Both the position numbers and the translations under genes were made by a program. DNA of 64,000 nt from a virus (lineage: Duplodnaviria > Heunggongvirae > Uroviricota > Caudoviricetes). The notes under the pieces are model-generated. The model was not told where the DNA came from, made no database searches, and was given only the letters and a program-made list of their open reading frames with translations. Positions within the stretch are counted from its first letter, which is position 1, and each line of letters opens with the position of its first letter. The stretch is taken from IMG/VR virus record IMGVR_UViG_2974649431_000001, positions 92,282 through 156,281 of that record. One strand, given 5' to 3'. Below, piece by piece: positions 7,462 through 43,780 of this stretch.

Positions 7462-8366
7462 TGTTCAAGAACGCCATCATCTACCGCATCGGCTCCAGCT
7501 GGCAAGCCACGCAGGAGGAAGTCGAAGAGGCCCTGCAGAAAGCCCCGTTCCTGGACTGCGGTGCCACGCAAGAGAAGTCCATGGGCTGGGTGCCTCCCCG
7601 CGGTGAAGACCACGGCGCACTGGCAGAGTCCATCAACGGCCAGTGGATCCTGAAGTTCCGCCAGGAGACCAAGTCCGTTCCTGGAAGCGTGCTGGCGCGC
7701 AAGGTCGCCGAGAAGGCTGCGCGCATCGAGCGCGAGACCGGTCGCAAGCCCGGCAAGAAGGAAACCCGCGAGCTGAAGGAAGAGGCGAAGCTGGATCTGC
7801 TGCCCTATGCTTTCACGAAGCTGAAGGGCATGTGGGTGTGGATCGACATCAAGGCAGGGCTTCTCGTCCTGGACACTTCCAGCCAAGGCTTCGCGGACAC
7901 CGTGGTCTCGCTGCTGGTCGAGCTTCTGCCTGGTCTCAGCGTGGCGCTGCTCGACACGAAAATCAGCCCACCCACCGCGATGTCTGAATGGCTCAGCACC
8001 CAAGAGCCACCCACGGGTTTCAGCATCGATCGGGAGTGCGAGCTGAAGAGCAACGACGAGAGCAAGGCGGGCGTCCGCTATGCACGACATCCGCTGGACA
8101 TTGACGAGATTCGTGATCACGTTGCTGCCGGCAAGATCGTGACGCGCCTCGCGCTGACCTGGGACGACCGCGTGAGTTTCACTCTGACCAACGACCTGAA
8201 GGTCACCAAGATGAAGTTCATGGACACGGTCTTCGACGGCGTCTCCAAGGACGACTCGGGCTTTGACGTGGACGTCGCGATCCTCACCGGAGAGCTGTCC
8301 AAGATGATCCCCAACCTCATCCAAGCACTCGGCGGCGAAGGGCGCGAAGCATGGCTGGAGAAGTGA
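7461..8366 (+). CDS. rdgC: recombination-associated protein RdgC
   Basis: MFKNAIIYRI...MGWVPP...GQWIL, LLPYAF, KIVTRLALTWDDRVSFTL, ILTGELSKMIPNLIQALGGE align along the whole length with E. coli RdgC. Confidence 0.85.
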   Translation: MFKNAIIYRIGSSWQATQEEVEEALQKAPFLDCGATQEKSMGWVPPRGEDHGALAESINGQWILKFRQETKSVPGSVLARKVAEKAARIERETGRKPGKKETRELKEEAKLDLLPYAFTKLKGMWVWIDIKAGLLVLDTSSQGFADTVVSLLVELLPGLSVALLDTKISPPTAMSEWLSTQEPPTGFSIDRECELKSNDESKAGVRYARHPLDIDEIRDHVAAGKIVTRLALTWDDRVSFTLTNDLKVTKMKFMDTVFDGVSKDDSGFDVDVAILTGELSKMIPNLIQALGGEGREAWLEK

Positions 8367-8623
8367 ACGTGGATCTGCTGGCAATCGGCGGGCTGCCCGT
8401 CATGGGCGTCCAATACCATCGGTTCCCCGGTACGACCGTCACGGTGTGTGCACTCACTCTGGAAAACGGCTTCACGGTCGTCGGCATGAGTGCTGCTGCC
8501 GACCCCAACCTCTTCGATGCCGATAAGGGCATGAAGTTCGCGTTCGAAGACGCGACGCAAAAGGTCTGGGACTTCGCAGCCTTCGAGATGCGCCGTAAGG
8601 CCCATGAAGGCCAGCAAGCCTAA
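8351..8623 (+). CDS. hypothetical phage protein (90 aa)
   Basis: ORF with small overlap at both ends. Confidence 0.45.
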   Translation: MAGEVNVDLLAIGGLPVMGVQYHRFPGTTVTVCALTLENGFTVVGMSAAADPNLFDADKGMKFAFEDATQKVWDFAAFEMRRKAHEGQQA

Positions 8624-9125
8624 GTGGAATTCGGGACTGGTGTCGCAGATGGTCTTCCAGCAAGTGCTGAAGTCCTCCGCGATGCTGGTCGTGCCGAACT
8701 GCTACTGGACGGGATACGAGTGCGACTTGCTCGCCATCGAAAAGGGAATGCGCATCATCGACATCGAGGTGAAGATCAGCAGGGCTGACTTGAAAGCCGA
8801 CATGAAGAAGGACAAATGGTGGCATACCCTCAGCTGGAGGTGCGAGGGACCGCCGAATCCCCGTCCATGGCCTCCCAAGGTGTGGAAGCACTGGTTCGCA
8901 CTCCCCGAGGGCATCTGGGACGACTCGCTCTACAGCAGCATCCCTGCCAACAGCGGGGTCATGTTGATGGAGGACAACCGGCAGCGCATCCGCATTGCAC
9001 GCGCACCACGTCCCAACAGGGATGCACCCAAAATCGAAGCAGCTGACGCGATCAACCTTGCGAGGCTGTCCAACTACCGACTCTGGGGCGCACAGCAGCG
9101 CATCTGGGAACTTGAAGGGGCGTAA
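8604..9125 (+). CDS. putative PD-(D/E)xK-type nuclease (MmcB-like)
   Basis: ECDLLAIEKGMRIIDIEVKISRADLKAD resembles the D...E-V-K core of PD-(D/E)xK / MmcB-like nucleases. Inference only. Confidence 0.4.
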   Translation: MKASKPKWNSGLVSQMVFQQVLKSSAMLVVPNCYWTGYECDLLAIEKGMRIIDIEVKISRADLKADMKKDKWWHTLSWRCEGPPNPRPWPPKVWKHWFALPEGIWDDSLYSSIPANSGVMLMEDNRQRIRIARAPRPNRDAPKIEAADAINLARLSNYRLWGAQQRIWELEGA

Positions 9126-9139
9126 GCCCTTTCTTTTTG
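9115..9139 (+). terminator. rho-independent terminator
   Basis: aaGGGGC-gtaa-GCCCtt stem followed by TTCTTTTTG. Confidence 0.6.
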
Positions 9140-9154
9140 ACTGGGCTTGTTTTC

Positions 9155-9194
9155 TGGAACTTTTCCAAGTTATAATCGAGTCACAGCAACACAC
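9155..9194 (+). promoter_or_regulatory. class-A promoter copy 1 (palindrome + -10 + conserved leader)
   Basis: TGGAActtTTCCA palindrome at 9155-9167, TATAAT at 9171-9176 and leader CGAGTCACAGCAACACAC. Near-identical to copies at 15552 and 34740. Confidence 0.6.
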
Positions 9195-9212
9195 TGACCC
9201 CAGGAGTACATC

Positions 9213-9872
9213 ATGACCAAGTCCAGCAACATTCAACAGCGCGGCCACTGCCAGTGCTGCGGTCGCCAGCAAGCCGTGATCGCCGGCACTGGCTTCATGG
9301 CGAAGCATGGTTACACCGTCGAAAACGGATGGTTCCATGGTGTGTGCAGCGGCCACCACTATGTGCCCGTGGAAGTAAGCAGGGTGCAGCTCGACAAGCT
9401 CTGCGAAATGGTTCTCACGGAATCTGCCAGCCTGGATCTGCGCGTCAAGGACCTGCAGGAGGGCGTCGAAGTCCCGAAGGCTGTGGTAAAGCAAGTCTAC
9501 AACCCCAAGACCAGCAAGTTCGAGGATGTGTCTACTCCCTGGGCCGACGCTACTCCCTGGGCGAAGCGTGACTTCCTGGAAACCATGATCTACAGGCTGA
9601 AGTCCCGGGCCTCCGCTGGTCGCAGCTGGGTTGCCCAGATGGAACGCATCGCCGACACCTACCACGGCCAGCCTCTCATGGATGTCGTGAAGACGGAAGG
9701 CCCGGAAAAGATCGTGGTCGGCGAGCAGCGCAAGGCGCCGAGCGGCATGGTGGTGACCGTCACTGACATCCGCGGAGCACGCGTGTACTGGCAAGGCAAG
9801 CGCCCCGGCGAAGAACGCGTCATGAAGGGCTGGACGGGAAGCACGGCTTTCCGCAAGTTCGAAAAGGTCTGA
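9213..9872 (+). CDS. hypothetical Cys/His-rich protein (219 aa)
   Basis: GHCQCCGRQQ...HGVCSGHH putative metal-binding N-terminus. Strong RBS (CAGGAG) and upstream promoter. Confidence 0.55.
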   Translation: MTKSSNIQQRGHCQCCGRQQAVIAGTGFMAKHGYTVENGWFHGVCSGHHYVPVEVSRVQLDKLCEMVLTESASLDLRVKDLQEGVEVPKAVVKQVYNPKTSKFEDVSTPWADATPWAKRDFLETMIYRLKSRASAGRSWVAQMERIADTYHGQPLMDVVKTEGPEKIVVGEQRKAPSGMVVTVTDIRGARVYWQGKRPGEERVMKGWTGSTAFRKFEKV

Positions 9873-9877
9873 AAACA

Positions 9878-9909
9878 GGGAGGCTAGGACCTCCCTTTCC
9901 TGCTACAAT
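9878..9909 (+). promoter_or_regulatory. terminator hairpin plus class-B extended -10 (TGCTACAAT)
   Basis: GGGAGG-ctagga-CCTCCC + TTTCC (9878-9900), then TGCTACAAT at 9901-9909, 24 nt upstream of ATG 9933. Confidence 0.55.
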
Positions 9910-9932
9910 CTGTCATCGAAAGAACATTCATC

Positions 9933-10253
9933 ATGGACAACCAAAAACTTCAAATGGTGTCGGACAGCTTCGCTTTCCTGGAGGGGCTGGTCAGCGAGGC
10001 CACTTACCTCCAGGTCGTGGAGAAGGCTCGCGATCTCATCGAACGAGATGGCTGGATCAGCGTAAGTCAGCGTCTCCCGCCGGCTTGCCACTACATCATC
10101 GCTTACGGCCGCTCGGGGTACACTGCCCCGCGGTGCCGCCAGGTTTACAGCACCTACACGGGCACACGCCCCCGTGACACCGTGGAAGACGAGCAGATCA
10201 CCTACTGGAAGCTCTACCCCAACCGCCCACCGATGGGAGACGCCGATGAATAA
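9933..10253 (+). CDS. DUF551-like phage protein
   Basis: DGWISVSQRLPPACHYIIAYG resembles the W-x-x-x-x-x-LP core of DUF551. Paralog-like to 17180..17575 and 33444..33740. Confidence 0.45.
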   Translation: MDNQKLQMVSDSFAFLEGLVSEATYLQVVEKARDLIERDGWISVSQRLPPACHYIIAYGRSGYTAPRCRQVYSTYTGTRPRDTVEDEQITYWKLYPNRPPMGDADE

Positions 10254-10677
10254 CACCCTCCCCAGGTACACCGAATGGTGTGCACTCCGAAAGAACGGAA
10301 AGTGGACCGACGGCATCCCCGATTGGGCCAGGAACCACATGGGCCACATGGACGATGTCACCGCGATGCGCTCCGTCATTGAAGAGCTCGCTGACTTCCG
10401 CCGGCTGCCTGCCGTCGAGACCTGCGCGTTCTGTGGCGAAGGTGAGGCCCGCTTGCTCGTCATCCGGCATTGCTCATCGTGCGAAGCTGACTACTCGGGC
10501 TCTCCGGAAGGCAGGATGCAAGCCCAAATCTCCTGTGCTGATCAGGTGTGTGAACGCTGCAGCGGCTCTGGTGAAGACCCCGAGGGCTACTACGATCAGA
10601 GCAAGGGCAATGCGGGCGGCACCCACGATGGACCCTGCCGCAACTGCAGCGGCTCCGGCGAAATCAAACCCACCTGA
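10246..10677 (+). CDS. DnaJ-type zinc-finger (CxxCxGxG repeat) protein
   Basis: Four CxxC units: CAFCGEG, CSSCEAD, CERCSGSG and CRNCSGSG. Start 10246 overlaps the upstream stop. Confidence 0.55.
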   Translation: MNNTLPRYTEWCALRKNGKWTDGIPDWARNHMGHMDDVTAMRSVIEELADFRRLPAVETCAFCGEGEARLLVIRHCSSCEADYSGSPEGRMQAQISCADQVCERCSGSGEDPEGYYDQSKGNAGGTHDGPCRNCSGSGEIKPT

Positions 10678-10686
10678 AGGTCAATC

Positions 10687-11700
10687 ATGACACCAGAATT
10701 TTTCACTGCCAAACAAGCCTCGGCAGAAATCGACAAAGTCCTCGCGGAGTACGGGATGCCCCAAGCCCCTCTGCTCGCCGCTGGTGCTGGATTCGAGGCT
10801 GCTCGGCGTCTGTTCCAGAGCGCATACGCCGACCTCCAGGAGACCATCAAAACCCTGGAAGAGGACGTCAGGCACCGGCAGGCGGCGATTGCCTTGCTCG
10901 AATCCCATATCGGCGATGACGTCTGGCGCTGGCAAGGCGACGGCAGCGACAACCTGAAGTCCATGGGCAACCAGATGGCTGTGCTCATCTCGGCTTCCGA
11001 CCTACGGAAGATTTCCTGCACGGACATCATGCTGGACGTCGTCCCCGGTCTGGACGGCATGGGCTATGAAGTCTATGCTAAGTCCGCGGATCAAGTCGCC
11101 GACAAGCTCTCGGAAACCTTCCAGGAGCTGGAGGACTGGCAACTCGGCATCAAGAGCATCCCGATTCGCGACCGTCTCTTCAAACTTCTCGAAGGCGTGA
11201 GCGTGTCCACGGATGTCAGCACTTCCGAAGCGACGGCGCACCATCGGTACTTCGGCAACGTGACTGTCGTGCAGGAAGACCCCTTCGATAAGCTGGGCCT
11301 TACGCTGCTCGTACAGGACGCCGAACCCAACTTCAAGCCTCAGCCGGGACTCACTGTGCGCGTGGTCAGTCGGCCGGAGTCCAACGGGAAGCGGAACTGG
11401 TACGCTGACATCGTTCGCTCCGAGCCCTGGAAGGGACTCGCAGGCACTGCCGGAGGTGTCTCGATCGCCCACGGCGAGCTCTGGAACCGCGTGGCGTATG
11501 CAGCGGAGCGGGCACGCTTCTTGCTCGGCGAACGCGACACCGAGCCCTACATCCTGGACTACAGCGAAGACATCCAGACGCCTGAAGGATGGAAAGGCGA
11601 ACGTGGTCGTGGCGCAAGTTTCAACCCCGCTGAGGGCAGTCCGCTCACCGCAATTCAGATGGCCGCCGTCATCGCCGCCCGTGATTCTGAGGGCAAGTAG
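10687..11700 (+). CDS. hypothetical protein (337 aa)
   Basis: Long ORF, no motif recognised. Confidence 0.5.
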   Translation: MTPEFFTAKQASAEIDKVLAEYGMPQAPLLAAGAGFEAARRLFQSAYADLQETIKTLEEDVRHRQAAIALLESHIGDDVWRWQGDGSDNLKSMGNQMAVLISASDLRKISCTDIMLDVVPGLDGMGYEVYAKSADQVADKLSETFQELEDWQLGIKSIPIRDRLFKLLEGVSVSTDVSTSEATAHHRYFGNVTVVQEDPFDKLGLTLLVQDAEPNFKPQPGLTVRVVSRPESNGKRNWYADIVRSEPWKGLAGTAGGVSIAHGELWNRVAYAAERARFLLGERDTEPYILDYSEDIQTPEGWKGERGRGASFNPAEGSPLTAIQMAAVIAARDSEGK

Positions 11701-11734
11701 CCTACAATACGCACACCGAAACAAGGAAGCCGAC

Positions 11735-12559
11735 ATGATAGAACCCACACTGCCGAAGCCTGCTTGGGATGCCAAGAGCATCGGCACCACGGAGGACGCC
11801 TACTCCGCACAGCAGATGAAGGAAGCGCTCCACCAACGGAACGCACTCGCCGACATCCTCGGCCAATGCATTGCAGCATCGGGCATCATCCGGCCCGTCG
11901 GACTGAGCGGCCCCCAGCTGCTGATGTTCGGCAATGACCTCCTGGAGCACCTGATCCGCCAGAACCCGCCGGTGGACAAGAAAGCAGTGATGACCACGGC
12001 CAGCGCCATTGTCGATGCACTGGTCGCCGACGCAAACGACGGGGGCTATGACCTGGAAGCCGGCTTGTTCGGCCCGGCATTCAGCAAACTGGTTCGCAGC
12101 TGGGCGCTGTGCTGCGATCTGGTCGCCCGCGCCGACGAAGCGATCACGAAGGAAGTCCCTTTCCCCACCGAGCTGCTTCGTGCGATCAACGCACTCCGGC
12201 TGGAATGCCCGTCGGAGGTCGTGAACGCCCTCGAGCATGAGTTCCGCCAGTGGTTCGACGCTGTGAACACTTCCACTGCTACGCTGAAGCGCATGCATGC
12301 AGCAGCGCGCGACCAGCTGGACAAGATCGCCGAAAACGACCCCGACCCGCTCGCGCCTCCCGGCAAGGAGTTCCACGCCGTGCTCACGGGCTGCGGCGAA
12401 GGTGTGCTCTTCGAGCATGAACCTGATGCGAAGTTCACGGAGACCGGCGACGAACGCATGACCGCCCCGGGTGTGCCTGCGATCGGAGAACACTTCCGCG
12501 AGCTCTACGCCGGCGACCCCAAGATGAAGCGCGTGAAGGTACGCGTTCTCAACGACTGA
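11735..12559 (+). CDS. hypothetical protein (274 aa)
   Basis: Start at ATG 11735 after RBS AAGGAAG. A CCTACAAT -10-like box lies at 11701. Confidence 0.5.
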   Translation: MIEPTLPKPAWDAKSIGTTEDAYSAQQMKEALHQRNALADILGQCIAASGIIRPVGLSGPQLLMFGNDLLEHLIRQNPPVDKKAVMTTASAIVDALVADANDGGYDLEAGLFGPAFSKLVRSWALCCDLVARADEAITKEVPFPTELLRAINALRLECPSEVVNALEHEFRQWFDAVNTSTATLKRMHAAARDQLDKIAENDPDPLAPPGKEFHAVLTGCGEGVLFEHEPDAKFTETGDERMTAPGVPAIGEHFRELYAGDPKMKRVKVRVLND

Positions 12560-12568
12560 AGAGGCCAC

Positions 12569-13096
12569 ATGAAGACAACCGCAGAATGGCTGGCAGGCAT
12601 CGAGAATGACCGCGCCCTGCTGGAGGACTGGCTGAAGAAACAGTACCGTGGTGAGGTGCGCGCTTCCATCAAGGTGGCGGAGCTTGCCGAGACCATCGAG
12701 GATCCGTCTCTTCGGACTGCAGTGGATCGCGTCGCCGACGACGAGGGGCGACACGCAGCATGGATTCGCGCCATCCTGAAGGTCGAGGGCGTCGAAGTCA
12801 ATCCGGACCAGGAGAACGCTGACGATCGCTACTGGCGCCACGTGATGGACGGAGAGCTGTCGCAGGACGAGCTTCTCGCCGCCGGCGCGCATGCCGAGCA
12901 GATGCGACTGGTTCGCATCGAGGCCATCATGAACTCCGGCGTGCTGGGGCAACACATCATCGCCGTCTTCCGGAGGATCTACGAAGACGAAGTGCACCAC
13001 GCGCGGATTTTCTCGCAGGCTTGCACACCCGAAGCCTACGCCAAGATGAGCGAAAAGCACCAAGCGGGCCTGGCTGCGCTTGGTCTTGAAATTTAA
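12569..13096 (+). CDS. ferritin-like di-iron domain protein
   Basis: Two E-x-x-H motifs (DDEGRHAAWI and EDEVHHARIF) spaced ~95 aa apart, typical of the ferritin-like superfamily. Inference. Confidence 0.45.
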   Translation: MKTTAEWLAGIENDRALLEDWLKKQYRGEVRASIKVAELAETIEDPSLRTAVDRVADDEGRHAAWIRAILKVEGVEVNPDQENADDRYWRHVMDGELSQDELLAAGAHAEQMRLVRIEAIMNSGVLGQHIIAVFRRIYEDEVHHARIFSQACTPEAYAKMSEKHQAGLAALGLEI

Positions 13097-13110
13097 CCAA
13101 GGAAGAACAC

Positions 13111-13392
13111 ATGACAAAAGGCATCAAACTGGTCGACGTCGCCATCACGATCAGAACGGTCATCGCAGTAGAAGTCGATGACATGAGCACCGAGTTCCGC
13201 ATGGAACAGATCCCCGCGCATGCACTGCGCGAAGCCAAGGACGACACATCGATCCTTCAATGCGAGGTGGATCTCTACAAGGAGATCAAGAAGGTAAGCG
13301 ATCTCGAAGAGCCCTGGGATGGCATCTGCCTCCCCTACGGCCGTCATGGGGCACGCACCATCGAGGAGATCCTGCAGGAATTCCCTCGGTGA
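13111..13392 (+). CDS. hypothetical protein (93 aa)
   Basis: ORF with RBS AAGGAAG. Confidence 0.45.
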   Translation: MTKGIKLVDVAITIRTVIAVEVDDMSTEFRMEQIPAHALREAKDDTSILQCEVDLYKEIKKVSDLEEPWDGICLPYGRHGARTIEEILQEFPR

Positions 13393-13868
13393 AGAAGCCC
13401 TACGAGTTCGAGCCGGGCAAAGTCTATGTGGTGTACGCCGACGGCTCCTGCAAGAACAACGGCAAGCCCGACGCCAAAGGTGGATGGGCTTACGTCATCT
13501 TGGACGCTGAGCAGCGCTACACCCTGGAGGAGAACTTCGCGGGCGCCTTCGGCGTGACCAACAACCAGATGGAGCTCATGGCAGCAATCGAGGCCTTCGA
13601 GCGCCTCCCCAAGGGCTGCTACGTGGATGTCTTTTTGGACAGCGAGTACGTCCTGAAGGGCTGTCGGGATTGGCTCCCCGGTTGGGTCGCGCGCGGATGG
13701 AAGACTTCGAGCGGCGGTCCCGTGAAGAACGAAGGTCTCTGGCACCGCATGATGGCCGCACTGGAAGGCAAGAAATTTGCCTGGACGTGGGTCAAAGGGC
13801 ACGCTGCAAGCAAATACAATAACCGAGTCGACGAGCTGGCGCAAGCGGCGGCCGCTCGGGTGGCATAG
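13389..13868 (+). CDS. rnhA: ribonuclease HI
   Basis: VYADGSC, TNNQMELMAAIEA, GWKTSSGGPVKNEGLW and WVKGHA...NNRVDELAQAAA align with E. coli RNase HI. GTG start overlaps the upstream TGA. Confidence 0.85.
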   Translation: MKKPYEFEPGKVYVVYADGSCKNNGKPDAKGGWAYVILDAEQRYTLEENFAGAFGVTNNQMELMAAIEAFERLPKGCYVDVFLDSEYVLKGCRDWLPGWVARGWKTSSGGPVKNEGLWHRMMAALEGKKFAWTWVKGHAASKYNNRVDELAQAAAARVA

Positions 13869-13882
13869 AAAGGAAAGAAAGT

Positions 13883-14131
13883 ATGCACCCCATGTTGGTG
13901 GTCTGGATCGTGTTCTCTGTGCTTCACATTCTGTTGGCATGGTTCTGCGTGAAGCTCGGTTACTCCGGCCCCAGGACGATCGGCGAATACGCGATCGTCG
14001 GAGGAATGATGTTCGTGCCTGTCGTGCAGGTGTTCAGCCTCATCGTAATCGCAGGCGGTCTCATCATCGACTCGAAAATCTGGGAGCTCACTCCCCGTGA
14101 GCTCTGGGCAAAACTGAAGGGCAAGCAATGA
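13883..14131 (+). CDS. small membrane protein
   Basis: Two hydrophobic segments; RBS GAAAGGAAAG. Confidence 0.45.
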   Translation: MHPMLVVWIVFSVLHILLAWFCVKLGYSGPRTIGEYAIVGGMMFVPVVQVFSLIVIAGGLIIDSKIWELTPRELWAKLKGKQ

Positions 14132-14439
14132 CGATTTTCTGGGTTCAATACCTGCTATCGGTAGTGGCCGTCGCAGTCTTGGCGTGTGGCATCTACAAGT
14201 ACCCGCAGACCTACGATGACCGGAAGGAAAGCTGGAGACCGAACGCCGTTCGATCGGTGCGAAACCTGAATGAGATGAACTTCGCGGCGATCATCCTCAT
14301 CTTTCTCGGATGCTTCGTGCCGGTGCTGAACACCCTCGCGGCGATCATCCTCCTGTTGGTGTCGGCGTTCGTGGGCTGCGGCCCCACGTGGAGTGAAGTG
14401 AAACAGATGTTCAAGAAGACAAAGGAGGTCAAGGAATGA
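14128..14439 (+). CDS. small membrane protein
   Basis: Hydrophobic segments LLSVVAVAVLACGIY and AAIILIFLGCFVPVLNTLAAIILLLVSAF. Confidence 0.45.
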   Translation: MTIFWVQYLLSVVAVAVLACGIYKYPQTYDDRKESWRPNAVRSVRNLNEMNFAAIILIFLGCFVPVLNTLAAIILLLVSAFVGCGPTWSEVKQMFKKTKEVKE

Positions 14440-14615
14440 CCAATGCAGAAGAAGCCGACGCGGCCGCCTTGCGCCACCTGAGCGACGCTATCGACGCGGC
14501 TGTCAAAAAATTCGGAGCCAAGGAACTCGCGGAGTCCCTGGCGTACAGCAACCAAGGTCATGGCATCAACTGCGATTGCGGTTCCTGCACTGGCGATGAC
14601 ATGATGGGGGATTGA
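14436..14615 (+). CDS. hypothetical small protein (59 aa)
   Basis: ORF below the 60-aa track cutoff that fills the gap between 14439 and 14615. ATGA overlap with the upstream stop; C-terminal CDCGSC. Confidence 0.3.
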   Translation: MTNAEEADAAALRHLSDAIDAAVKKFGAKELAESLAYSNQGHGINCDCGSCTGDDMMGD

Positions 14616-15067
14616 TGGAAGCAGCAATGAAAACGAAGAAGGTACGCGAGACGCGCGCGGAAGCCAATGCGCGGGCGATCCGCGAACAAAAAGAGCGAGA
14701 GGCTGCGTGGGTGGCACGGCGTCCGCTCGCCCTCGCCGACCTCATCCAGAAGGTGAAGGCTGCCGGGATGTTTGTCGAGGACTTGACAGTCCAGGTCGTG
14801 GAAGGCGTGATCATCCCGAGCTTCATCGTCCCGCATCAACTGGTCGGCTACGACAACGTCTTCGGTTGGGACACCGAAGAATGGGAGTTCGAGGAAGCCA
14901 TGCTGAGTGTCGACCACTACATCGCCCAGCAGAAGGCAGAGGCCGAGAGACGCGAGTTTGCGGCCGCGACCTGGAAAGGCCTCTCGCCGGAACAACGGGG
15001 TGCGCTCATCGAGTTCCCACCGTTCGAGATCAGCGAAGCCATCAGCTGGTCCTCGTCGGGCTGCTAA
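14615..15067 (+). CDS. hypothetical protein (150 aa)
   Basis: ORF 14612..15067 with ATG at 14615. Confidence 0.45.
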   Translation: MEAAMKTKKVRETRAEANARAIREQKEREAAWVARRPLALADLIQKVKAAGMFVEDLTVQVVEGVIIPSFIVPHQLVGYDNVFGWDTEEWEFEEAMLSVDHYIAQQKAEAERREFAAATWKGLSPEQRGALIEFPPFEISEAISWSSSGC

Positions 15068-15106
15068 GCCCAAAGCGTGTTAGTATCAATCTTTTAGGAG
15101 TCAAAC

Positions 15107-15298
15107 ATGTCCATCATCGGCCTTCTGGGCGTTCTCTTCGTAGCACTGAAACTGATCGGCGTCATCACCTGGTCCTGGTGGCTGGTGCTGCTTCCCTTTT
15201 ACCTGGGGTTCGCGATCTTCATCGGCTTCCTCGTGCTGACCATGGGCTTCGCGGCGACCTTCCTGGTCATCGGCTCCTTCTTCAAGGGCTGGCGGTGA
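15107..15298 (+). CDS. small hydrophobic membrane protein (63 aa)
   Basis: Almost entirely hydrophobic; RBS TAGGAG. Confidence 0.45.
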   Translation: MSIIGLLGVLFVALKLIGVITWSWWLVLLPFYLGFAIFIGFLVLTMGFAATFLVIGSFFKGWR

Positions 15299-15542
15299 GC
15301 GCAAGGCGCATCAAGAAGCGTACCCATCAGATGCTGGGGAGGGGCTTCTGTCATTCCAGCGAGCGCGGGCCAGCTGAGAAGCAAATCACGCACTGTGCTG
15401 ATTGGTATCGAGGCGGACGGATTCGCTTGCTGACGTGCCATCGTCGATTCACTATCCACTACGGAGTTTGGAGACCGACCCTGTGGGTCCCGAAGAAGGG
15501 CGTAGTGCACAATCTGACGAACGGTTTCCGGCACATCAGGGC

Positions 15543-15590
15543 TTGACCCCGAGGAAAACTTCCAGTTATAATCGAGGCACAGCAACACAC
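15543..15590 (+). promoter_or_regulatory. class-A promoter copy 2
   Basis: -35 TTGACC (15543), GGAAaacTTCCA, TATAAT (15567-15572) and leader CGAGGCACAGCAACACAC. Confidence 0.6.
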
Positions 15591-15601
15591 TGGAGTTTGA
15601 A

Positions 15602-15985
15602 ATGAAAGCCGATATCAAAGACCACCTGGAACGCACCATCGCTGCTTCGAAGAAGCGGCTGAATGAGTTCTCCCTGGCCTTCGCGAAGGAACCCCTGTAT
15701 ACCATGCGGTGGGCAGACCAGACCTTCGAGCACGCAGCGAAGATGGAAGTCTATGGGAAGGCTCTCGTGTCGCTGGAGGCACCTGGCCTCCAGATGGAAG
15801 TGGACGGCGAGAAGGTTTTCAACCTCCGCCGGTGCATCGAAATCCTCCAGGACCTGATCCTACACGAGACTCGCCATCCCGCTCGCAGCACCTCGGCGAT
15901 GGCGAACATCGCAGACCAGCTGGTCAACGCTGCGCGCTGCGAACTCCTGGAAGACCTGAAGACCTTCGAAAAAGAAGGGGCTTGA
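15602..15985 (+). CDS. hypothetical protein (127 aa)
   Basis: ORF following class-A promoter copy 2. Confidence 0.5.
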   Translation: MKADIKDHLERTIAASKKRLNEFSLAFAKEPLYTMRWADQTFEHAAKMEVYGKALVSLEAPGLQMEVDGEKVFNLRRCIEILQDLILHETRHPARSTSAMANIADQLVNAARCELLEDLKTFEKEGA

Positions 15986-16016
15986 TTCAGTTTCGGCCTG
16001 CAGTTATAATGACTGC

Positions 16017-16241
16017 ATGCTGACACTGAACCAGATCAACAAGGAACTAGCCCGCCGAGGGTATGAGGAGCGCATTGCCAAAGGCAAGGGCTACTTCTAC
16101 TTTTTCGGCGGTACCTGCCCTACGTGGATCAAGACTTGCGTATGGGTTGACACCTTGAACACCTACTCCATGACGGAGTGGCTGACGCAATACTTCATGT
16201 TGAAGCAAACGTGGGACAGCTTCCCACAAGCAGATTTTTGA
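16017..16241 (+). CDS. hypothetical protein (74 aa)
   Basis: ORF after a TTATAAT box flanked by GCAGT/ACTGC inverted repeat. Weak RBS. Confidence 0.35.
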   Translation: MLTLNQINKELARRGYEERIAKGKGYFYFFGGTCPTWIKTCVWVDTLNTYSMTEWLTQYFMLKQTWDSFPQADF

Positions 16242-16248
16242 GGACATC

Positions 16249-16560
16249 ATGGAAGAGAAACCCTCCCAGAAGCAAGTCACCAAAGCGGTGCGTAACATCG
16301 TCTCCAACGAAATGGGCGTGACCCGCACGGACGTCCAGACGGAACTGAAAGAGATGCTGCGTGAACGCATCGACACGGCTTTCCGCAGCATGGACCTGGA
16401 TGCGGTGGTGCGCGAAGCCACTGTCTCTGTGCTGAACAACCTGATCCGAAAAAACAGCTGGGACCGCAGCGCGCTTCAAAGCGCCGTGATCGAACAGGTG
16501 AAGGCCACTGTGTCGCAGAACCTGAAGCTCTCAGTGGAGTGCAAGGTGGGCCCACAATGA
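16249..16560 (+). CDS. hypothetical protein (103 aa)
   Basis: ORF. Confidence 0.45.
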   Translation: MEEKPSQKQVTKAVRNIVSNEMGVTRTDVQTELKEMLRERIDTAFRSMDLDAVVREATVSVLNNLIRKNSWDRSALQSAVIEQVKATVSQNLKLSVECKVGPQ

Positions 16561-17177
16561 CCTACGAAACCGCCGCCAGTGCGTATGACGAGGACGCCGA
16601 CACGCTCCTGCGACTGCTCGACTCGATTGAGCAGATCGTCTCCGGTGAAACCGTGACCAGCAGCGACCGCCTTTATGACCGCAGCATCCGGCCTCGAAAG
16701 ATGACGATTCGAGACGCGCAAGCGAAGCTAGAGCCTATGGTCAGTACCCTGCGGTCGATCGTGGTTCGCATGCGTGCCGCAACTCCGCGCCCCCAGGCGG
16801 ATGCAGTGGCACCGTTCCAGGAGCGTGTGCAGCTGTGGATGATGGCGTGCTTCGGCGCTGAGATTTCTGCCGATCTCGGGGAGCGCAATCTCCGCTTCTT
16901 GGAAGAAGCGCTGGAGTTGGTCCAGTCCTGCGGCTGCAGTGTCGATGAAGCGCACCAGATGGTGGACTATGTGTTCAATCGACCGATCGGCGAACCCTCG
17001 CAAGAAGTCGGCGGGGTGATGGTCACGCTCGCTGCTTTGTGCCTCGCCAACAGCCTGGACATGCACACGGCGAGCGAAACGGAGCTGTCTCGCATCTGGA
17101 CGAAAGTGGAGGTCATCCGTGCCAAGCAGGCATCCAAACCTGTCCCGGTCCGCTCGAGAACGGCCGGGAGGATCTGA
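16557..17177 (+). CDS. MazG-like nucleotide pyrophosphohydrolase
   Basis: FLEEALELVQS (EExxE) and EVGGVMVTLAAL motifs of all-alpha NTP pyrophosphatases. Could play a dCTPase/dUTPase-like role. Inference. Confidence 0.45.
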   Translation: MTYETAASAYDEDADTLLRLLDSIEQIVSGETVTSSDRLYDRSIRPRKMTIRDAQAKLEPMVSTLRSIVVRMRAATPRPQADAVAPFQERVQLWMMACFGAEISADLGERNLRFLEEALELVQSCGCSVDEAHQMVDYVFNRPIGEPSQEVGGVMVTLAALCLANSLDMHTASETELSRIWTKVEVIRAKQASKPVPVRSRTAGRI

Positions 17178-17179
17178 CC

Positions 17180-17575
17180 ATGGCTGCTGACTCTCATTCG
17201 TTGCCAAAGCCCGGGTCATCGGATGCTTCCGATGCGATCGACTCCGTCCTCGGCGAGTACAACTGGCCTGCGAATCCTAAAAATGCTGCACGCGCTGGTT
17301 TTGAAGCGGCGCGCCGGATGTTGTCATCGCAAGAAGCGTCCATCAACTCTCACAAGTTCGACAGCACCCGTTCTGCCGTGGTGAACCCCAAGTCCCACTG
17401 GCTACCCATCGACAAGAACACGCCCCGCGGCTGCAAGGTCTACGTGATCCGGCGCCCCGCGGGTGTCGCTACCACTGGTGTCGTGGCGTCCGACGAAACG
17501 TTCTGGACGCACTGGCACCCTATTCCCACATTCAACCCGGAAGAAGAGTATGCAAGCCAACCCCCGAGAAGCTGA
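17180..17575 (+). CDS. DUF551-like phage protein
   Basis: WLPIDKNTPRGCKVYVIRRPAG core; RBS GGGAGGA. Confidence 0.4.
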   Translation: MAADSHSLPKPGSSDASDAIDSVLGEYNWPANPKNAARAGFEAARRMLSSQEASINSHKFDSTRSAVVNPKSHWLPIDKNTPRGCKVYVIRRPAGVATTGVVASDETFWTHWHPIPTFNPEEEYASQPPRS

Positions 17576-17888
17576 GCACGTCGCTTTCGACAAGTGGATC
17601 GCCGACATCGCAGGCGAGGGCGCGCTGGAACGCTTCTGCGGCCTGAATGAGCAGTACGAGAATCCGCGTGTCCAAGACTACCGGCTCGGCTGGCGGGAAG
17701 CGCTGAACTACGTCCGCGAGGAGCGCAAGGAACTGGAGGCAGTCGTCGCAGAACTGCGTCATTTGCACGCGAACTTGGTGCGCAGTGCTACCAAGGACTA
17801 CGGGGGTCTGGGTGCGCAGGGAAAGCGCCTTGCCGAAGGCCTTTTGTCCCCGCAGATTGAGCGACTGGAACGCTTCTTGGCGTTATAA
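17550..17888 (+). CDS. hypothetical protein (112 aa)
   Basis: ORF 17463..17888 with internal ATG 17550; it overlaps the upstream gene. Confidence 0.35.
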   Translation: MQANPREAEHVAFDKWIADIAGEGALERFCGLNEQYENPRVQDYRLGWREALNYVREERKELEAVVAELRHLHANLVRSATKDYGGLGAQGKRLAEGLLSPQIERLERFLAL

Positions 17889-17912
17889 TCAGACATCAAC
17901 GAGGAGTTCGTA

Positions 17913-18269
17913 ATGAAGCACTACACACTGACCCTGATCACCCCCGTCCGCCACGACACCATCCCCGACTTCGTCCCCGTCGTGAAGGAACTCCGTAACC
18001 TCACTGGCTGGACACTGGAGAAATCCGTGTACTTCCTCCGGGGCGAACGTGCGCGCGTCGTGACGCACCAATGCGTCAACCTGGCAATCCCGGAGGGTTC
18101 TCGGCTCCGCGACATCATCAGGGTTGAAGAAGGCAGCATCGGTAAAGGCTTCGCTGCACTCAGCCTGTATGAGTTGACCAGATTCTTCGACCGCCTGGAA
18201 CAGGCCGGGTTGAATCACGACATGGGCAAGCATATCGCCCAACTCCAAGAATTCTTCAACCAACCGTAA
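17913..18269 (+). CDS. hypothetical protein (118 aa)
   Basis: Preceded by GTTATAAT and RBS GAGGAG. Confidence 0.5.
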   Translation: MKHYTLTLITPVRHDTIPDFVPVVKELRNLTGWTLEKSVYFLRGERARVVTHQCVNLAIPEGSRLRDIIRVEEGSIGKGFAALSLYELTRFFDRLEQAGLNHDMGKHIAQLQEFFNQP

Positions 18270-18281
18270 AGGCATTTCATC

Positions 18282-18677
18282 ATGAACGCTTTCCACCAAG
18301 ACGGCAGCCGTCCCGCAGCCGACCAGATTTTCGTCTTCGGTTCCAACCTGAGCGGCATTCACGGCGGCGGCGCTGCCCGTGCAGCCTACGACTACTACGG
18401 CGCCGAATGGGGCGTGCGCGGCTCTGTCGGCATGACCGGCCACTGCTACGCGATTCCCACAAAGGCTGAGGGCATCACCCACACGCTGGACCTGGATGAC
18501 ATCCGCGTGTTCATCGATGCCTTCGTGGCGTACACCAAGGCGCACCCCAACCTGAAGTTCTTCGTGACGCGCGTCGGCTGTGGCCTCGCTGGCCTGAAGG
18601 ACGAGGACATCGCACCCATGTTCAAGGGTGCCGTCAACTGCGACTTCGCCGAAGAATGGAAACCCTACCTGGAATGA
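18282..18677 (+). CDS. hypothetical protein with Gly-rich nucleotide-binding-like motif
   Basis: IFVFGSNLSGIHGGGAARAA is reminiscent of SLOG/macro-type GGG loops. Family not recognised with confidence. Confidence 0.45.
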   Translation: MNAFHQDGSRPAADQIFVFGSNLSGIHGGGAARAAYDYYGAEWGVRGSVGMTGHCYAIPTKAEGITHTLDLDDIRVFIDAFVAYTKAHPNLKFFVTRVGCGLAGLKDEDIAPMFKGAVNCDFAEEWKPYLE

Positions 18678-18788
18678 AACCCGCGCTTCTCGCCCTCGCC
18701 GTGCTCGATCTCAAAGAGCCGGCGATCACACGTGACGACCCTGACCGCGCGGTCTCGGTCGTTTTCTTGTCCATACCCATCGCAGCCA

Positions 18789-19073: not shown

Positions 19074-19282
19074 TCAAGCTGAGTGACTGGAACAGCAGAG
19101 GGGTCATCCTCGTCAACATCGATGACATCGTCTCAGTGAAGTCGCCCGCTAGCCCCGGCGGCTACTCTCCTATGGCCTATGTGAAGGTGAGGGGAGAGAC
19201 CCAAGACTTCGCCGTCTGCGAAAACCCTACTGACATCTATGCAGCCATCCACCGTGCCCGCGCCCTTCGAACGGGCGAATGA
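19070..19282 (+). CDS. hypothetical protein (70 aa)
   Basis: RBS AAGGAGAG; ATGA overlap with the upstream stop. Confidence 0.45.
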   Translation: MIKLSDWNSRGVILVNIDDIVSVKSPASPGGYSPMAYVKVRGETQDFAVCENPTDIYAAIHRARALRTGE

Positions 19283-19939: not shown

Positions 19940-19969
19940 GTACCCACATCACAAAGTAGGAGTTACGAA

Positions 19970-34708: not shown

Positions 34709-34715
34709 TACCAGA

Positions 34716-34740
34716 GAAGCCCTTAGGGGCTTTTTCTTTT
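34716..34740 (+). terminator. rho-independent terminator
   Basis: AGCCC-tta-GGGCT then TTTTTCTTTT. Confidence 0.6.
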
Positions 34741-34778
34741 GGAAGTTTTCCAGTTATAATCGAGGCATAGCAACACAC
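34740..34778 (+). promoter_or_regulatory. class-A promoter copy 3
   Basis: TGGAAgttTTCCA (34740-52), TATAAT (34755-60) and leader CGAGGCATAGCAACACAC. Confidence 0.6.
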
Positions 34779-34792
34779 AGTAGGAGAAGATT

Positions 34793-35143
34793 ATGAAGCG
34801 CTACAGCTACACCGAATTTGCACAAAAGCTCGCCGATGTGCGCCTCGAATGGTTCAATGGCCTCGCAAAGACGCCCCAGGAAGAAAAGATCCTGAAGCAA
34901 GCCCACGCAGAGCTGACCAAGGCCTGCCGGGAAGCGTCCGACTACATCGTCGCTACCAAGATGAAGAAGACGGACGCCCTGATGTACCTGGCGGGCCTGA
35001 GCGCAGATGCGTGGGCACTCCACAAGGACAAGCTCGTTGTCATGGGCTGGGGCACTGCCCAAATGACCCAAGGCAAGGTAAAGCCAGAACACTGGGCGGT
35101 GAAGGAACTCTTCGAGCGAGCTCAAAACATCCTGCAACCCTAA
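34793..35143 (+). CDS. hypothetical protein (116 aa)
   Basis: RBS AGTAGGAG. Confidence 0.5.
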   Translation: MKRYSYTEFAQKLADVRLEWFNGLAKTPQEEKILKQAHAELTKACREASDYIVATKMKKTDALMYLAGLSADAWALHKDKLVVMGWGTAQMTQGKVKPEHWAVKELFERAQNILQP

Positions 35144-41305: not shown

Positions 41306-41524
41306 AAGTACGGCATCTGGACGTGCTACACGGTGGACGCTCAAGGGGAGAAGGCTATGGCGTGACCCCTAAGGACGCGCTCAGCAACTACCGATTCTGG
41401 ATGGAGTTCTCCAAGCCGCCTTTCCGTGCGTTCATGGCGCCGCCGAAAAATTTCTTGGAAAAGTTCTTGGAATGGATGAAAGGCGTATATAATAGAGGCA
41501 ACTAAACACTTTCAGGAGAACAAC

Positions 41525-41740
41525 ATGGCAAAGAACCAAACGTCGCTCGACAACATCCTCATCGGCTCGCTCAACGAGATCGCAAGAATCCGTAAGGAAG
41601 CGCTCGCCGACATTCAGAAGGTTTGCAAGTCTGCGAGTGGCACCGTCGATTCTTTCCGGGATGAAGTGCAAAAAATCCTGGACGTCGAAGAGCGGCGTGT
41701 CAAGGAAGCGCTGGATAAGCGTGCGCGTGCACTGAAGTAA
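41525..41740 (+). CDS. hypothetical small protein, paralog A (71 aa)
   Basis: QTSLDNILIGSLNEIARIRKEALADIQK; paralog of 41827..42075. Confidence 0.5.
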   Translation: MAKNQTSLDNILIGSLNEIARIRKEALADIQKVCKSASGTVDSFRDEVQKILDVEERRVKEALDKRARALK

Positions 41741-41826
41741 CCGGCGGAAAATTTCTTCCAAAAGCTCCTGGAACAGCTGAAAAAGAACATACAATAGAGG
41801 CAAGCAAACAGTTTCAGGAGTACATC

Positions 41827-42075
41827 ATGGGAATGCGGCAGACCGCGATCGACAATATCGTGATCGCATCGTTGAACGACATTTGCAAGGCACGCAAGGA
41901 AGCCTTGGATCACATCGCTAAGCACCAGCACAGCGTCACCGGCGGACTGTTGCAGCTCGTCATCAAAGTCGCGCTGGACTACGAAGCTCAGCAGGTCAAG
42001 GAAATCCTGGACCGGCGGGCAGTCCAAGAAGCGGCTGTCATGGCCAAAAGTTACCCCGACGAGGAGCCGGAGTAA
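41827..42075 (+). CDS. hypothetical small protein, paralog B (82 aa)
   Basis: QTAIDNIVIASLNDICKARKEALDHIAK. Confidence 0.5.
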   Translation: MGMRQTAIDNIVIASLNDICKARKEALDHIAKHQHSVTGGLLQLVIKVALDYEAQQVKEILDRRAVQEAAVMAKSYPDEEPE

Positions 42076-42706: not shown

Positions 42707-42707
42707 A

Positions 42708-42792
42708 GTTCCTGGAACTGTTACATCTTTTTTGTCAAACTGTTTGAAATCTTTGTTATACTAGCGGCACAGCAAAGGAAATGCTGCTTTTT
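42708..42792 (+). promoter_or_regulatory. degenerate class-A promoter copy 4 with leader hairpin
   Basis: Perfect palindrome AGTTCCTGGAACT (42708-20). -35 TTGTCA (42732-37) and -10 TATACT (42757-62). Leader GGCACAGCAAAGG. Hairpin CAGCA-aaggaaa-TGCTG followed by TTTTT (42770-92). Confidence 0.5.
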
Positions 42793-42811
42793 AACTCCCA
42801 GGAGATACATC

Positions 42812-43780
42812 ATGGCACACGAAATCACCAACACCAACGGCATGGACGAAATGGCCTTCACGGGCAGCCGTGCTGCAATCTGGCATGGCCTCGGCCAAGA
42901 ACTGCCGGTCGGCGCAAGCATCGCTGAGTGGCGCAAGGCCGCCGGCATGGACTGGGAGGCGATGGAGTCCCTGGTCAGCTACAACGCCCTCGGCGAGACC
43001 AAGTTCGCACCGGACAAGAAGCTGCTGTTCCGCAGCGACAACAAGGAAGCGCTGGGCATCGTCGGCAGCGACTACAAGATCGTCCAGCCGGGGCAGGTCC
43101 TGGGCTTCTTCGACGACCTGACCAAGCTCCATGGCATGCGCCTCAGCACTGCTGGCACGCTGTTCGGCGGCAAGCGCTTCTGGGCACTCGCCGAGACCAG
43201 CAACAAGGCCGACGTGGTGGGTGGCGACGAGGTCGGCGCATACCTGCTGCTCACGACCAGCGTGGACGGGACGATGTCCACCCAAGCGCGCTACACCAGC
43301 ATCCGCGTGGTGTGCAACAACACCCTGACGATCGCACTCAGCGGCAACGCCAAGCGCGCTGTGAAGATGACGCACCACCGGGAATGGGACCCCACGCAGG
43401 TCAAGATCGACATGGGCCTGCTGGGCGAATCCTGGGCCGGCTACCTGGGCAAGCTCCGTGCGCTCAGCGAAATCAAGATGAGCGAGCAGGACACCCGCAA
43501 GTTCTACGAAAAGATGTTCTATAATCCCAGCAAGGCAGAGCCGACGACCGCTGAGCAGCGTACCGTCGACATGCTGATGGAAAAGGCCTTCGCTGGCATC
43601 GGCAGCGAGATGAGCGCCGGCACCGCCTGGGGTGCGCTGAACGGAGCCACCGAGCTCTACACGCACTGGAAGGGCAATCGCGACCTGAGCCGGCAGTTCT
43701 GGGACGCGTTCGCCGGTGAGCAGTCTGATAAGAAGGACATGGTCCTCAACGGCTTGGTCGAACAGTTCGAAATCGCATAA
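42812..43780 (+). CDS. DUF932-family protein
   Basis: LFGGKRFWAL...YLLLTTSVDGTMS...RVVCNNTL matches the DUF932 pattern. Confidence 0.55.
   Translation: MAHEITNTNGMDEMAFTGSRAAIWHGLGQELPVGASIAEWRKAAGMDWEAMESLVSYNALGETKFAPDKKLLFRSDNKEALGIVGSDYKIVQPGQVLGFFDDLTKLHGMRLSTAGTLFGGKRFWALAETSNKADVVGGDEVGAYLLLTTSVDGTMSTQARYTSIRVVCNNTLTIALSGNAKRAVKMTHHREWDPTQVKIDMGLLGESWAGYLGKLRALSEIKMSEQDTRKFYEKMFYNPSKAEPTTAEQRTVDMLMEKAFAGIGSEMSAGTAWGALNGATELYTHWKGNRDLSRQFWDAFAGEQSDKKDMVLNGLVEQFEIA

Follow-up and report, generated by a model that had tools for sequence, protein, structure and literature searches.

The stretch of DNA analysed here (64,000 nucleotides, referred to below as the window) carries four copies, one of them degenerate, of a promoter-like repeat that ends in the translation start of the gene directly downstream. 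A megablast search matched window positions 8000-20000 at 100% to Acidovorax phage ACP17 (NC_041997.1 / KY979132.2, 156,281 bp, genus Busanvirus); window position 1 corresponds to position 92282 of that record, and the window as a whole to record positions 92282-156281. ACP17 is a distant T4-like myovirus with a G+C content of 58.7% and a host that is also GC-rich. T4 core genes in its annotation include those for a gp23-like capsid protein, sheath and baseplate proteins, gp43, gp45/44/62, UvsX/Y, a gp55-like late sigma factor and RegA. More than 2,500 T4-type phage records contain a match to the major capsid protein, and the identity of RegA, which is gp112, was confirmed with Pfam (PF01818, E = 1e-26). 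With few exceptions, the window's genes are + strand genes of small size that encode non-structural, mainly hypothetical proteins. The paper describing the ACP17 genome mentions no promoters, terminators or repeats.

Anatomy of the repeated cassettes

An earlier sequence-only reading had placed three copies at 9155, 15552 and 34740 and a degenerate fourth at 42708, and all four are present as described (Table 1). A 31-nt degenerate pattern allowing up to two mismatches recovers three copies in the window and has 0 matches in 100 dinucleotide shuffles. In copies 1-3 the TATAAT hexamer is perfect, and copies 1 and 2 have a TTGnnn 18 nt before it; the promoter of copy 2 agrees with the sigma-70 consensus at 11 of 12 positions with an 18-nt spacer. 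Copy 3 has no TTG -35, and a T-run sits at the -35 position. The palindrome, which had been thought to overlap the -35 region, lies instead in the spacer between the -10 box and the TTGnnn -35 (18-nt spacing, copies 1 and 2). The ribosome-binding site (RBS), which had been put 15-25 nt beyond the leader, begins 1-7 nt after the 18-nt leader stretch, and the predicted 5' untranslated regions (5'UTRs) measure 23-30 nt in copies 1-3 and 43 nt in copy 4.

Two of the copies had been reported to follow intrinsic terminators directly, which folding bears out for copies 1 and 3: the hairpins before them have predicted energies of -13.9 and -12.9 kcal/mol, respectively, and each is followed by a T-run. 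No stem-loop terminator was found by folding upstream of copy 2. Promoter and leader do recur as a unit. The repeats are longer than the ~40 nt originally proposed, extending over 83 nt for copy 3 and 86 nt for copy 1. More specifically, window 34715-34797 is identical at 83 of 83 positions to record 22430-22512, 104 kb away, with unrelated flanks on both sides, and the shared block contains the terminator stem, T-run, dyad, -10 box, leader, ribosome site and ATGAA, that is, two bases past the ATG. Window 9118-9203 is identical at 77 of 86 positions to record 20652-20737, again between unrelated flanks, starting at the terminator and ending within the Shine-Dalgarno (SD) sequence. Because both blocks span the region from terminator to ribosome site or start codon and their flanks are unrelated, the repeat unit is a terminator-promoter-leader-RBS cassette bounded by gene ends.

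Table 1. Cassette components and related features in ACP17 (window coordinates unless marked as record positions)
Feature	Position	Strand	Details
Copy 1, cassette	9114..9215	+	terminator hairpin to ATG of gp149
Copy 1, terminator hairpin	9114-9133	+	followed by T-run
Copy 1, -35	9147-9152	+	TTGTTT
Copy 1, dyad	9155-9167	+	TGGAACTTTTCCA
Copy 1, -10	9171-9176	+	TATAAT
Copy 1, predicted +1	near 9183	+
Copy 1, 18-nt leader stretch	9177-9194	+	CGAGTCACAGCAACACAC
Copy 1, conserved start/leader	9182-9194	+	CACAGCAACACAC
Copy 1, SD	9202-9206	+	AGGAG
Copy 1, start codon	9213	+	ATG (gp149)
Copy 2, cassette	15543..15604	+	no terminator upstream
Copy 2, -35	15543-15548	+	TTGACC
Copy 2, dyad	15553-15563	+	GGAAAACTTCC
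Copy 2, -10	15567-15572	+	TATAAT
Copy 2, leader	15578-15590	+	CACAGCAACACAC
Copy 2, SD	15592-15595	+	GGAG
Copy 2, start codon	15602	+	ATG (gp161, ORFan)
Copy 3, cassette	34714..34797	+
Copy 3, terminator hairpin	34714-34736	+	with T-run
Copy 3, dyad	34740-34752	+	TGGAAGTTTTCCA
Copy 3, -10	34755-34760	+	TATAAT
Copy 3, leader	34766-34778	+	CATAGCAACACAC
Copy 3, SD	34782-34786	+	AGGAG
Copy 3, start codon	34793	+	ATG (gp200, ORFan)
Copy 4, cassette	42707..42814	+	degenerate, subtype A
Copy 4, dyad	42707-42719	+	AGTTCCTGGAACT
Copy 4, -35	42732-42737	+	TTGTCA; overlaps second dyad
Copy 4, second dyad	42735-42747	+	TCAAACTGTTTGA
Copy 4, -10	42757-42762	+	TATACT
Copy 4, start region	42768-42778	+	CACAGCAAAGG
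Copy 4, leader hairpin	42770-42786	+	followed by T-run
Copy 4, SD	42800-42804	+
Copy 4, start codon	42812	+	ATG (gp217, DUF932)
Weaker family member	41488..41527	+	TATAAT 41488-41493, agagg, CAACTAAACAC 41499-41509, SD, ATG 41525 (gp213)
Weaker family member	41790..41829	+	TACAAT 41790-41795, agagg, CAAGCAAAC 41801-41809, AGGAG, ATG 41827 (gp214)
ACP17-specific block			gp047-048, between conserved tail protein gp046 and hub gp049
ACP17-specific block			gp050-062, after gp049
ACP17-specific block			gp145-154
ACP17-specific block			gp158-172
ACP17-specific block			gp200-203, after conserved gp199
Second-class TATAAT boxes (starts), window	2614, 17884, 26031, 38220
Second-class TATAAT boxes (starts), record	4776, 7451, 23470, 66014, 73277, 81310

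A genome-wide family in variable gene blocks

Three copies and a degenerate fourth proved too low a count once the whole genome was considered. At least 17 sites in ACP17, all on the same (+) strand, share the arrangement TTGnnn-N17-19-TATAAT-N5-CACAGCAA(A/C), followed by a GGAG-type ribosome site and ATG, and every family member lies on the coding strand between genes, directly upstream of a gene. The spacer is 17-19 nt long (mostly 18), the discriminator is G-rich (nGAGGC), the start region reads CA(C)AGCAA(A/C), and the predicted +1, 7 nt after the -10 box, is an A in 14 of 16 sites. Subtype B comprises five members, the three window copies and those at record 20705 and 22470. Subtype A, which was found by anchoring on TATAAT-N5-CACAGCAA and includes copy 4, has a spacer ending in (T)GAAACTGTT(C/T) and the leader CACAGCAAACGAAACAGGAG. 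Family 5'UTRs are 17-30 nt long (43 nt in copy 4) and contain 42% A compared with 23% genome-wide; the leaders are unstructured, with minimum free energies of 0 to -2.8 kcal/mol that are no better than those of shuffles.

The genomic surroundings of the cassettes were compared with those in Variovorax phage V45v66, the closest relative in the phage collection (81.6% amino-acid identity in the capsid protein), which is far more diverged from ACP17 than are the pairs in the studies that defined the elements discussed below. A tblastn search of all ACP17 open reading frames (ORFs) against V45v66 showed that the subtype-B cassettes are located within, or at the margins of, gene blocks that have no V45v66 homolog (Table 1). 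Genes directly downstream of cassettes have no Pfam domain, apart from the DUF932 gene that follows copy 4, and gp161 and gp200 are ORFans. Homologs of gp149 occur in unrelated siphophages (PAE1, XcP1 and Burkholderia phages) and in Stenotrophomonas T4-likes, and none was found in V45v66.

Virion genes of ACP17 carry a different motif, (C)TAAATA(C/G), which resembles T4-type late promoters and lies 20-45 nt upstream of the start codon; it was seen upstream of the genes for the capsid (L006 ~14650-14717), sheath, portal, neck and hub proteins and of gp068. Since the late genes use CTAAATAC, the TATAAT boxes of the cassettes are not late promoters. The hub gene gp049 lies between two early cassettes and retains its own late-type motif (TAAATAC), in keeping with a role of the terminators in insulating inserted early modules from late genes.

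Perfect TATAAT boxes of a second class (Table 1) are without a -35 hexamer and without CACAGCAA, and have a G at -14 ((T/C)GnTATAAT) and GC-rich sequence upstream. Several of these boxes precede replication-type genes, among them the clamp gene gp108 and the deoxynucleoside monophosphate kinase gene gp100, and they may be extended -10 or middle-type promoters. A further promoter-like site, TTGATT-17-TATAAT, lies at window 15982-16019; the annotated ATG of gp162 (16017) is 7 nt past its -10 box, so either the mRNA is leaderless or the start codon is mis-annotated.

Probable early-promoter cassettes of the PeSL type

Composite motifs known as PeSLs (promoter-early stem-loops) have been described from the T4-type phages RB49/phi1, T4/PST and KVP40/nt-1 (Arbiol et al. 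2010, PMC2839356; Comeau et al. 2014, PMC4122927). They occur in the hyperplastic regions of these genomes, mostly immediately upstream of ORFans, and consist of a stem-loop terminator or attenuator, a sigma-70-like early promoter, an SD sequence and a start codon, conserved over ~100 bp; both their promoter and terminator activities and recombination between copies, giving indels and mini-circles, have been demonstrated experimentally (PMC2839356, PMC4122927). In RB49/phi1 the stem-loop mostly lies in the gap separating the -35 from the -10 box or overlaps the -10, and it can also be upstream of the -35 (PMC2839356).

The ACP17 repeats share with PeSLs a composite intergenic layout of ~60-100 bp that includes a sigma-70-like early promoter, an SD sequence and a start codon and, in copies 1 and 3, a stem-loop or terminator. 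They also share a large number of copies per genome, a position upstream of small ORFans in variable regions, a consensus specific to the lineage, and copies similar enough to recombine. Among the features by which PeSLs are recognised, the T4-type genome, the sigma-70-like promoter, the SD/start-codon end and the many copies beside ORFans are all found in ACP17; the stem-loop is present inside the repeat block of copies 1 and 3 and absent from copy 2, and the spacer dyads are weak hairpins. There are also differences. ACP17 and its host are GC-rich and the phage is just distantly T4-like; its GC-rich terminator lies upstream of the -35, with a weak AT-rich dyad in the spacer where RB49 often has a GC-rich stem; and the very sequence of its start region and leader is conserved, even across lineages, which is not a stated feature of PeSLs.

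The exact ACP17 cassette was found nowhere else in 50,697 phage records, IMG/VR and metagenomes, where looser cassette patterns gave mostly single chance matches and no closely related genome pair was found. The motif had been expected to recur in related phages, and it does so at the level of architecture, with homologous families of the same design in relatives and the exact cassette in none. About 20 cassettes in V45v66 read terminator-cTTGAAAgtgTTTCGAgttttccgtgtTATACT-N8-14-AACGAAGAAAGGAAA-N5-7-ATG, and a compact form, T-run-GGAAACTGTTTCGTGT-TATACT, also occurs there. At least seven textbook PeSLs are present in the IMG/VR contig 3300035181_001055, whose G+C content is 41-45% and whose hub protein is 60% identical; in short, they consist of a hairpin plus TTGACA-N16/17-TATAAT-N5-CATCAGCAACGAAAACAGGAG-ATG. 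In full, their layout is a GACCCTAC...GTAGGGTC hairpin, ggTTGACA, N16-17, TATAAT, N5, CATCAGCAACG(G/A)AAACAGGAG and ATG. The early-promoter family conserved in Stenotrophomonas phage Moby, gaagaaa..CTTGACA-N17-TAtACAATAggtgta..AAGGAG, is that phage's own and contains neither dyad nor AGCAAC.

Some details of these relatives are recorded here as separate observations. V45v66 leaders, which lie on the minus strand of the record, have one to three tandem ACGAA/AACGA units before GAAAGGAAA, and many V45v66 promoters resemble a 9-nt tandem duplication, GTGTTTCGA-GTTTTCCGT, in the spacer. The leader of ACP17 copy 4 (42770-42792) holds the hairpin CAGCAAAGGAAATGCTG followed by CTTTTT, which is terminator-like in a consensus scan; located just past the predicted start and upstream of gp217, it could be a candidate attenuator. 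The V45v66 ortholog of gp217 likewise has a leader hairpin. An unrelated metagenome contig of 46% G+C, Ga0164297_10007513, has three promoters (at 1192, 1498 and 4038) in which TTGACA, a spacer with a GC-rich hairpin and TATAAT-ACA(C/T)ACA... come before a leader rich in CA, AGGAG and ATG. The layout is that of RB49-like PeSLs and the leader is similarly CA-rich, which suggests a recurrent design.

We posit, with a probability of about 75%, that the repeats form the core parts of early-promoter cassettes of the PeSL type in a T4-like phage, PeSLs being a known kind of element that is new here for this phage group. Each cassette would be a self-contained expression unit, often opening with an intrinsic terminator that would stop incoming transcription, and would be driven by a strong promoter for the host sigma-70 RNA polymerase (TTGnnn, 17-19 nt, TATAAT). 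Transcripts are predicted to start at the A of CACAGCAA(C/A), 7 nt past the -10 box, which puts the starts of copies 1-4 near window 9183, 15579, 34767 and 42769, and to carry a 17-30 nt, A/C-rich, structure-free 5'UTR that leads to a GGAG-type RBS and the initiation codon of a small accessory (early) gene. Most likely the copies are nearly identical because a very strong promoter and translation start are under selection, and also because of concerted evolution through recombination or gene conversion between cassettes, which would move the flanked ORFans; the 83-nt pair, 100% identical at a distance of 104 kb between unrelated flanks, hints at such recombination. From the DNA we infer promoter activity, the transcription start, early timing and recombination at the cassettes, and most likely they function as strong early promoters for the host's sigma-70, within expression cassettes that are insulated and prone to recombination. 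This assignment would extend PeSL-type cassettes to GC-rich, distantly T4-like phages of Betaproteobacteria (Busanvirus and relatives), in which promoters and repeats were previously undescribed. For ACP17, a phage in use for biocontrol, it would also help annotation by mapping the likely early transcription units and the insulated ORFan modules, and it would yield compact terminator-promoter-leader-RBS parts for Acidovorax and Variovorax.

The 'uber' early promoters of T4 offer a further comparison, as a strong host-sigma-70 family with an extended consensus that drives small nonessential early genes (PMC2988021). T4 early promoters carry consensus beyond the UP, -35, TGn and -10 elements (Hinton 2010, PMC2988021). 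The ACP17 promoters differ from them in having no TGn extended -10 (AGT or TTC precedes TATAAT), a spacer of 18 rather than 17 nt and a weak or variable -35, and in placing the extra information in the spacer and at +1 to +14 rather than in an A-rich UP element.

Several points weigh against the assignment to PeSL-type early cassettes. Start site, timing and strength are all deduced from sequence; copy 3 and its twin have no recognisable -35 and may thus need more than plain sigma-70 recognition; and copy 2 is without a stem-loop. The V45v66 junctions equivalent to three ACP17 cassette sites hold no cassette, and ACP17 and V45v66 (capsid 82% amino-acid identity) are too diverged for cassette-mediated indels to be reconstructed as they were for RB49/phi1. 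Finally, the start-anchored conservation of AGCAAC exceeds what a strong promoter plus an unstructured leader needs.

The missing -35 raises the alternative that the cassettes, or at least the compact copies without this hexamer, are middle-type promoters needing a phage activator or a sigma-appropriation-like factor, comparable to the middle-promoter elements (PmSLs) of Vibrio phage nt-1 (PMC4122927). That the compact layout of T-run, dyad and -10 box is conserved in V45v66 accords with this proposal as well. We consider it unlikely, given that most members have TTGnnn at 17-19 nt and share their -10 box, start region and leader with the compact copies, that no MotA-box-like TGCTT element is present in the cassettes, and that the separate class of GnTATAAT boxes before replication-type genes is the better candidate for middle promoters. 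The 100% identity of the 83-nt pair might also be expected of neutral remnants of segmental duplication or of a selfish mobile repeat with no regulatory role. This is highly improbable: the repeat boundaries coincide with functional landmarks (the terminator stem at one end, the ribosome site or start codon at the other), the copies are all intergenic, on the coding strand and directly upstream of genes, terminal inverted repeats are absent, and the architecture recurs in diverged lineages whose core proteins are 55-82% identical.

Other promoter types were tried and rejected. Hairpin promoters of the N4 virion RNA polymerase have a 5-7 bp stem and a 3-nt loop, and those of T7-like phages are contiguous promoters. 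A promoter of either kind was suggested by the 5-bp stem and 3-nt loop of the dyad and was rejected on the T4-like genome and the presence of sigma-70 hexamers. There is no RNA polymerase gene among the 253 annotated coding sequences of ACP17; gp199, annotated as 'DNA-directed RNAP', is a 68-amino-acid protein with a weak match to DUF6171. The sigma-54 pattern GG-N10-GC does not fit the cassette sequence. An extracytoplasmic function (ECF)-type promoter, with GGAAC/TGAAAC as -35 and CACAGC as -10, would have inconsistent spacing, 16 nt in subtype A versus 21 nt in subtype B. A gp55-dependent, T4-type late promoter (TATAAATA-like) was rejected as well, the ACP17 virion genes carrying (C)TAAATA(C) and the cassettes preceding non-structural ORFans.

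Spacer dyad, leader motif and remaining features

Two features of the cassettes deserve separate attention, namely the dyad in the spacer and the start/leader sequence conserved across lineages. The palindrome had been proposed to be an operator for a dimeric regulator, of which the conserved, co-changing arms hold up, the location over the -35 and a fixed position in all promoters do not, and the regulatory role itself is not established. Such an operator, GGAA-N3-TTCC bound by a dimeric phage or host DNA-binding protein that switches these promoters, could shut early transcription off or replace the missing -35 in the compact copies, and would be a layer added to the cassettes. The arms are conserved, whereas the 3-nt centre is GTT, CTT or AAC in the copies of the window and takes six forms in V45v66; the arms also change together between phages, from GGAA/TTCC in ACP17 to GAAA/TTTC in V45v66. 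Among the promoters of both phages, GRAA...TTYC pairs number 17 at a 7-nt offset, 13 of which are exactly complementary, against 0-3 at most other offsets; seven pairs at offset 14 are due to an additional TTTCC box in V45v66. Folded as single strands, the dyads give weak hairpins (-1.7 to -2.7 kcal/mol), which makes a protein site on double-stranded DNA more plausible than a structural stem-loop. Compact copies consisting of terminator T-run, dyad and -10 box without a -35 occur in both ACP17 and V45v66, and the mechanism by which T4 early promoters are shut off is unknown according to a review (Hinton 2010, PMC2988021).

The dyad is, however, perfect in four of the five subtype-B copies and imperfect at record 20705 (GGAAGAGTTTCG), is reduced to AAC-T-GTT in subtype A, and is absent from the third lineage (IMG/VR 3300035181_001055). 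Its centre falls near -17, -21/-22 or -29/-30 depending on the subfamily, so that the distance to the -10 box varies. As the promoters are paralogous, the recurrence of the dyad is not independent evidence, and the left arm in V45v66 doubles as a TTGAAA -35-like hexamer, which could explain arm conservation. Genome-wide, GGAA-N3-TTCC is the most enriched well-populated 4-N3-4 palindrome in ACP17 (24 versus 3.8 expected, 6-fold), as is GAAA-N3-TTTC in V45v66 (32 versus 7.1), but 20 of the ACP17 occurrences lie inside genes (3.8 expected from 4-mer frequencies, ~5-fold). Most in-gene copies are in the frame G-GAA-NNN-TTC-C (Glu-x-Phe), and non-palindromic control pairs are also 2-3-fold enriched; the codon phase may account for part of the excess, perhaps not all of it. 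Examples of the palindrome lie at window 1272, 4124, 7228, 11006, 11112, 27854 and 31844. No obvious helix-turn-helix regulator was seen among ~20 ORFs scanned against Pfam. On balance, we regard an operator role as a tentative proposal, possible but unproven.

In most ACP17 members a gap of exactly 5 nt separates TATAAT from the leader motif CACAGCAA, of which single-base variants occur, CATAGCAA in copy 3 among them. In V45v66 and 3300035181_001055 the position of AGCAAC relative to the -10 box is the same to within 1 nt; the distance from the motif to the ribosome site is variable. Occurrences of the motif upstream of ribosome sites coincide with a promoter in 13 of 18 cases. The fixed distance to the -10 box and the mostly promoter-linked occurrence tie the motif to the transcription start, where it could exert its effect either on DNA, with the initial transcribed sequence influencing the stability of the open complex or promoter escape, or on the 5' end of the RNA. 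The conservation of AGCAAC across three lineages of 41-59% G+C is the least expected feature of the cassettes, and an unstructured A/C-rich leader alone is insufficient to account for it.

In one version of the RNA-level role, (A)CAGCAAC... at the 5' end of early mRNAs would be read so as to give coordinated post-transcriptional control of the cassette-driven genes, with the translational repressor RegA, a RegB-like nuclease with S1, or a 5'-end-dependent stability or translation factor as candidate readers. Retention of AGCAAC/AACGAAAC in ACP17, V45v66 and 3300035181_001055, despite the range in G+C and unconserved spacers, is consistent with such a role, as are the almost exclusive occurrence of the motif alongside a promoter and the presence of RegA in ACP17. 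Moreover, the targets of RegA and RegB in T4 are translation-initiation regions that lack structure, in early mRNAs whose ribosome sites read GGAG (PMC3014915). Yet a motif fixed to the -10 box within 1 nt and variable in its distance to the ribosome site suits a DNA-level role at least equally. Known RegA sites are A+U-rich and lie at or just 5' of the AUG, which the ACP17 leaders fit loosely, and the strong RegB consensus GGAGRAYARAA is poorly matched by copies 1-3 (PMC3014915). A specific RNA mechanism is backed by neither structure, Rfam family nor antisense partner: the phage genome holds no meaningful leader-complementary site at up to two mismatches, hence no small-RNA or antisense partner was found, and Rfam detects only a tRNA in the window, with no known RNA family at the cassettes. 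We therefore think it rather doubtful that the leader is read as RNA in this way.

Two other promoter systems bear on the conserved start region. According to work from the Bujard laboratory, strong early promoters of coliphage T5 reportedly share sequence from +1 to +20 that affects late initiation steps and promoter escape. ACP17 likewise shares its initial transcribed sequence, but the sequence is a different one, and the parallel is a lead rather than a test. In the lambdoid late promoter PR', Q binds an element located between -35 and -10, and the initial transcribed region contains an element that induces pausing. ACP17 resembles it in layout alone, with a site in the spacer and a conserved early transcribed sequence; it differs in that its start region has no -10-like ANNNT pause element, no terminator lies downstream except in copy 4, and no Q-like gene was identified in ACP17.

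That the cassettes carry both features together as recognition elements beyond the sigma-70 promoter, a spacer dyad and a start-anchored tag, seems to us improbable. If it were true, the dyad (GGAA-N3-TTCC in ACP17, GAAA-N3-TTTC in the Variovorax relative) would be bound by a dimeric phage protein as a shut-off site or a -35 substitute, and the tag (A)CAGCAAC(G)AAAC, present in at least three lineages, would be read by a phage factor, on DNA or at the RNA 5' end, and would mark early transcripts. It would then offer an experimental handle on how early transcription is shut off in T4-type phages, which is still unexplained in the T4 literature.

Some minor features of the genome lie apart from the cassettes. 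Two long stretches of this tightly packed region are gene-free in the annotation, window 35521-36029 (~510 nt) and 19572-19996 (~425 nt), and neither has an Rfam match at the gathering threshold. A tRNA-Met gene at window 63934-64000 overruns the end of the record by ~4 nt, so that the deposited linear record cuts the gene, which fits a circularly permuted genome that was opened arbitrarily. Close to the other end of the record lie a tRNA-Glu gene (record 276-351) and a tRNA-Ser gene (record 1666-1753), the latter beginning 7 nt past a TATAAT box.

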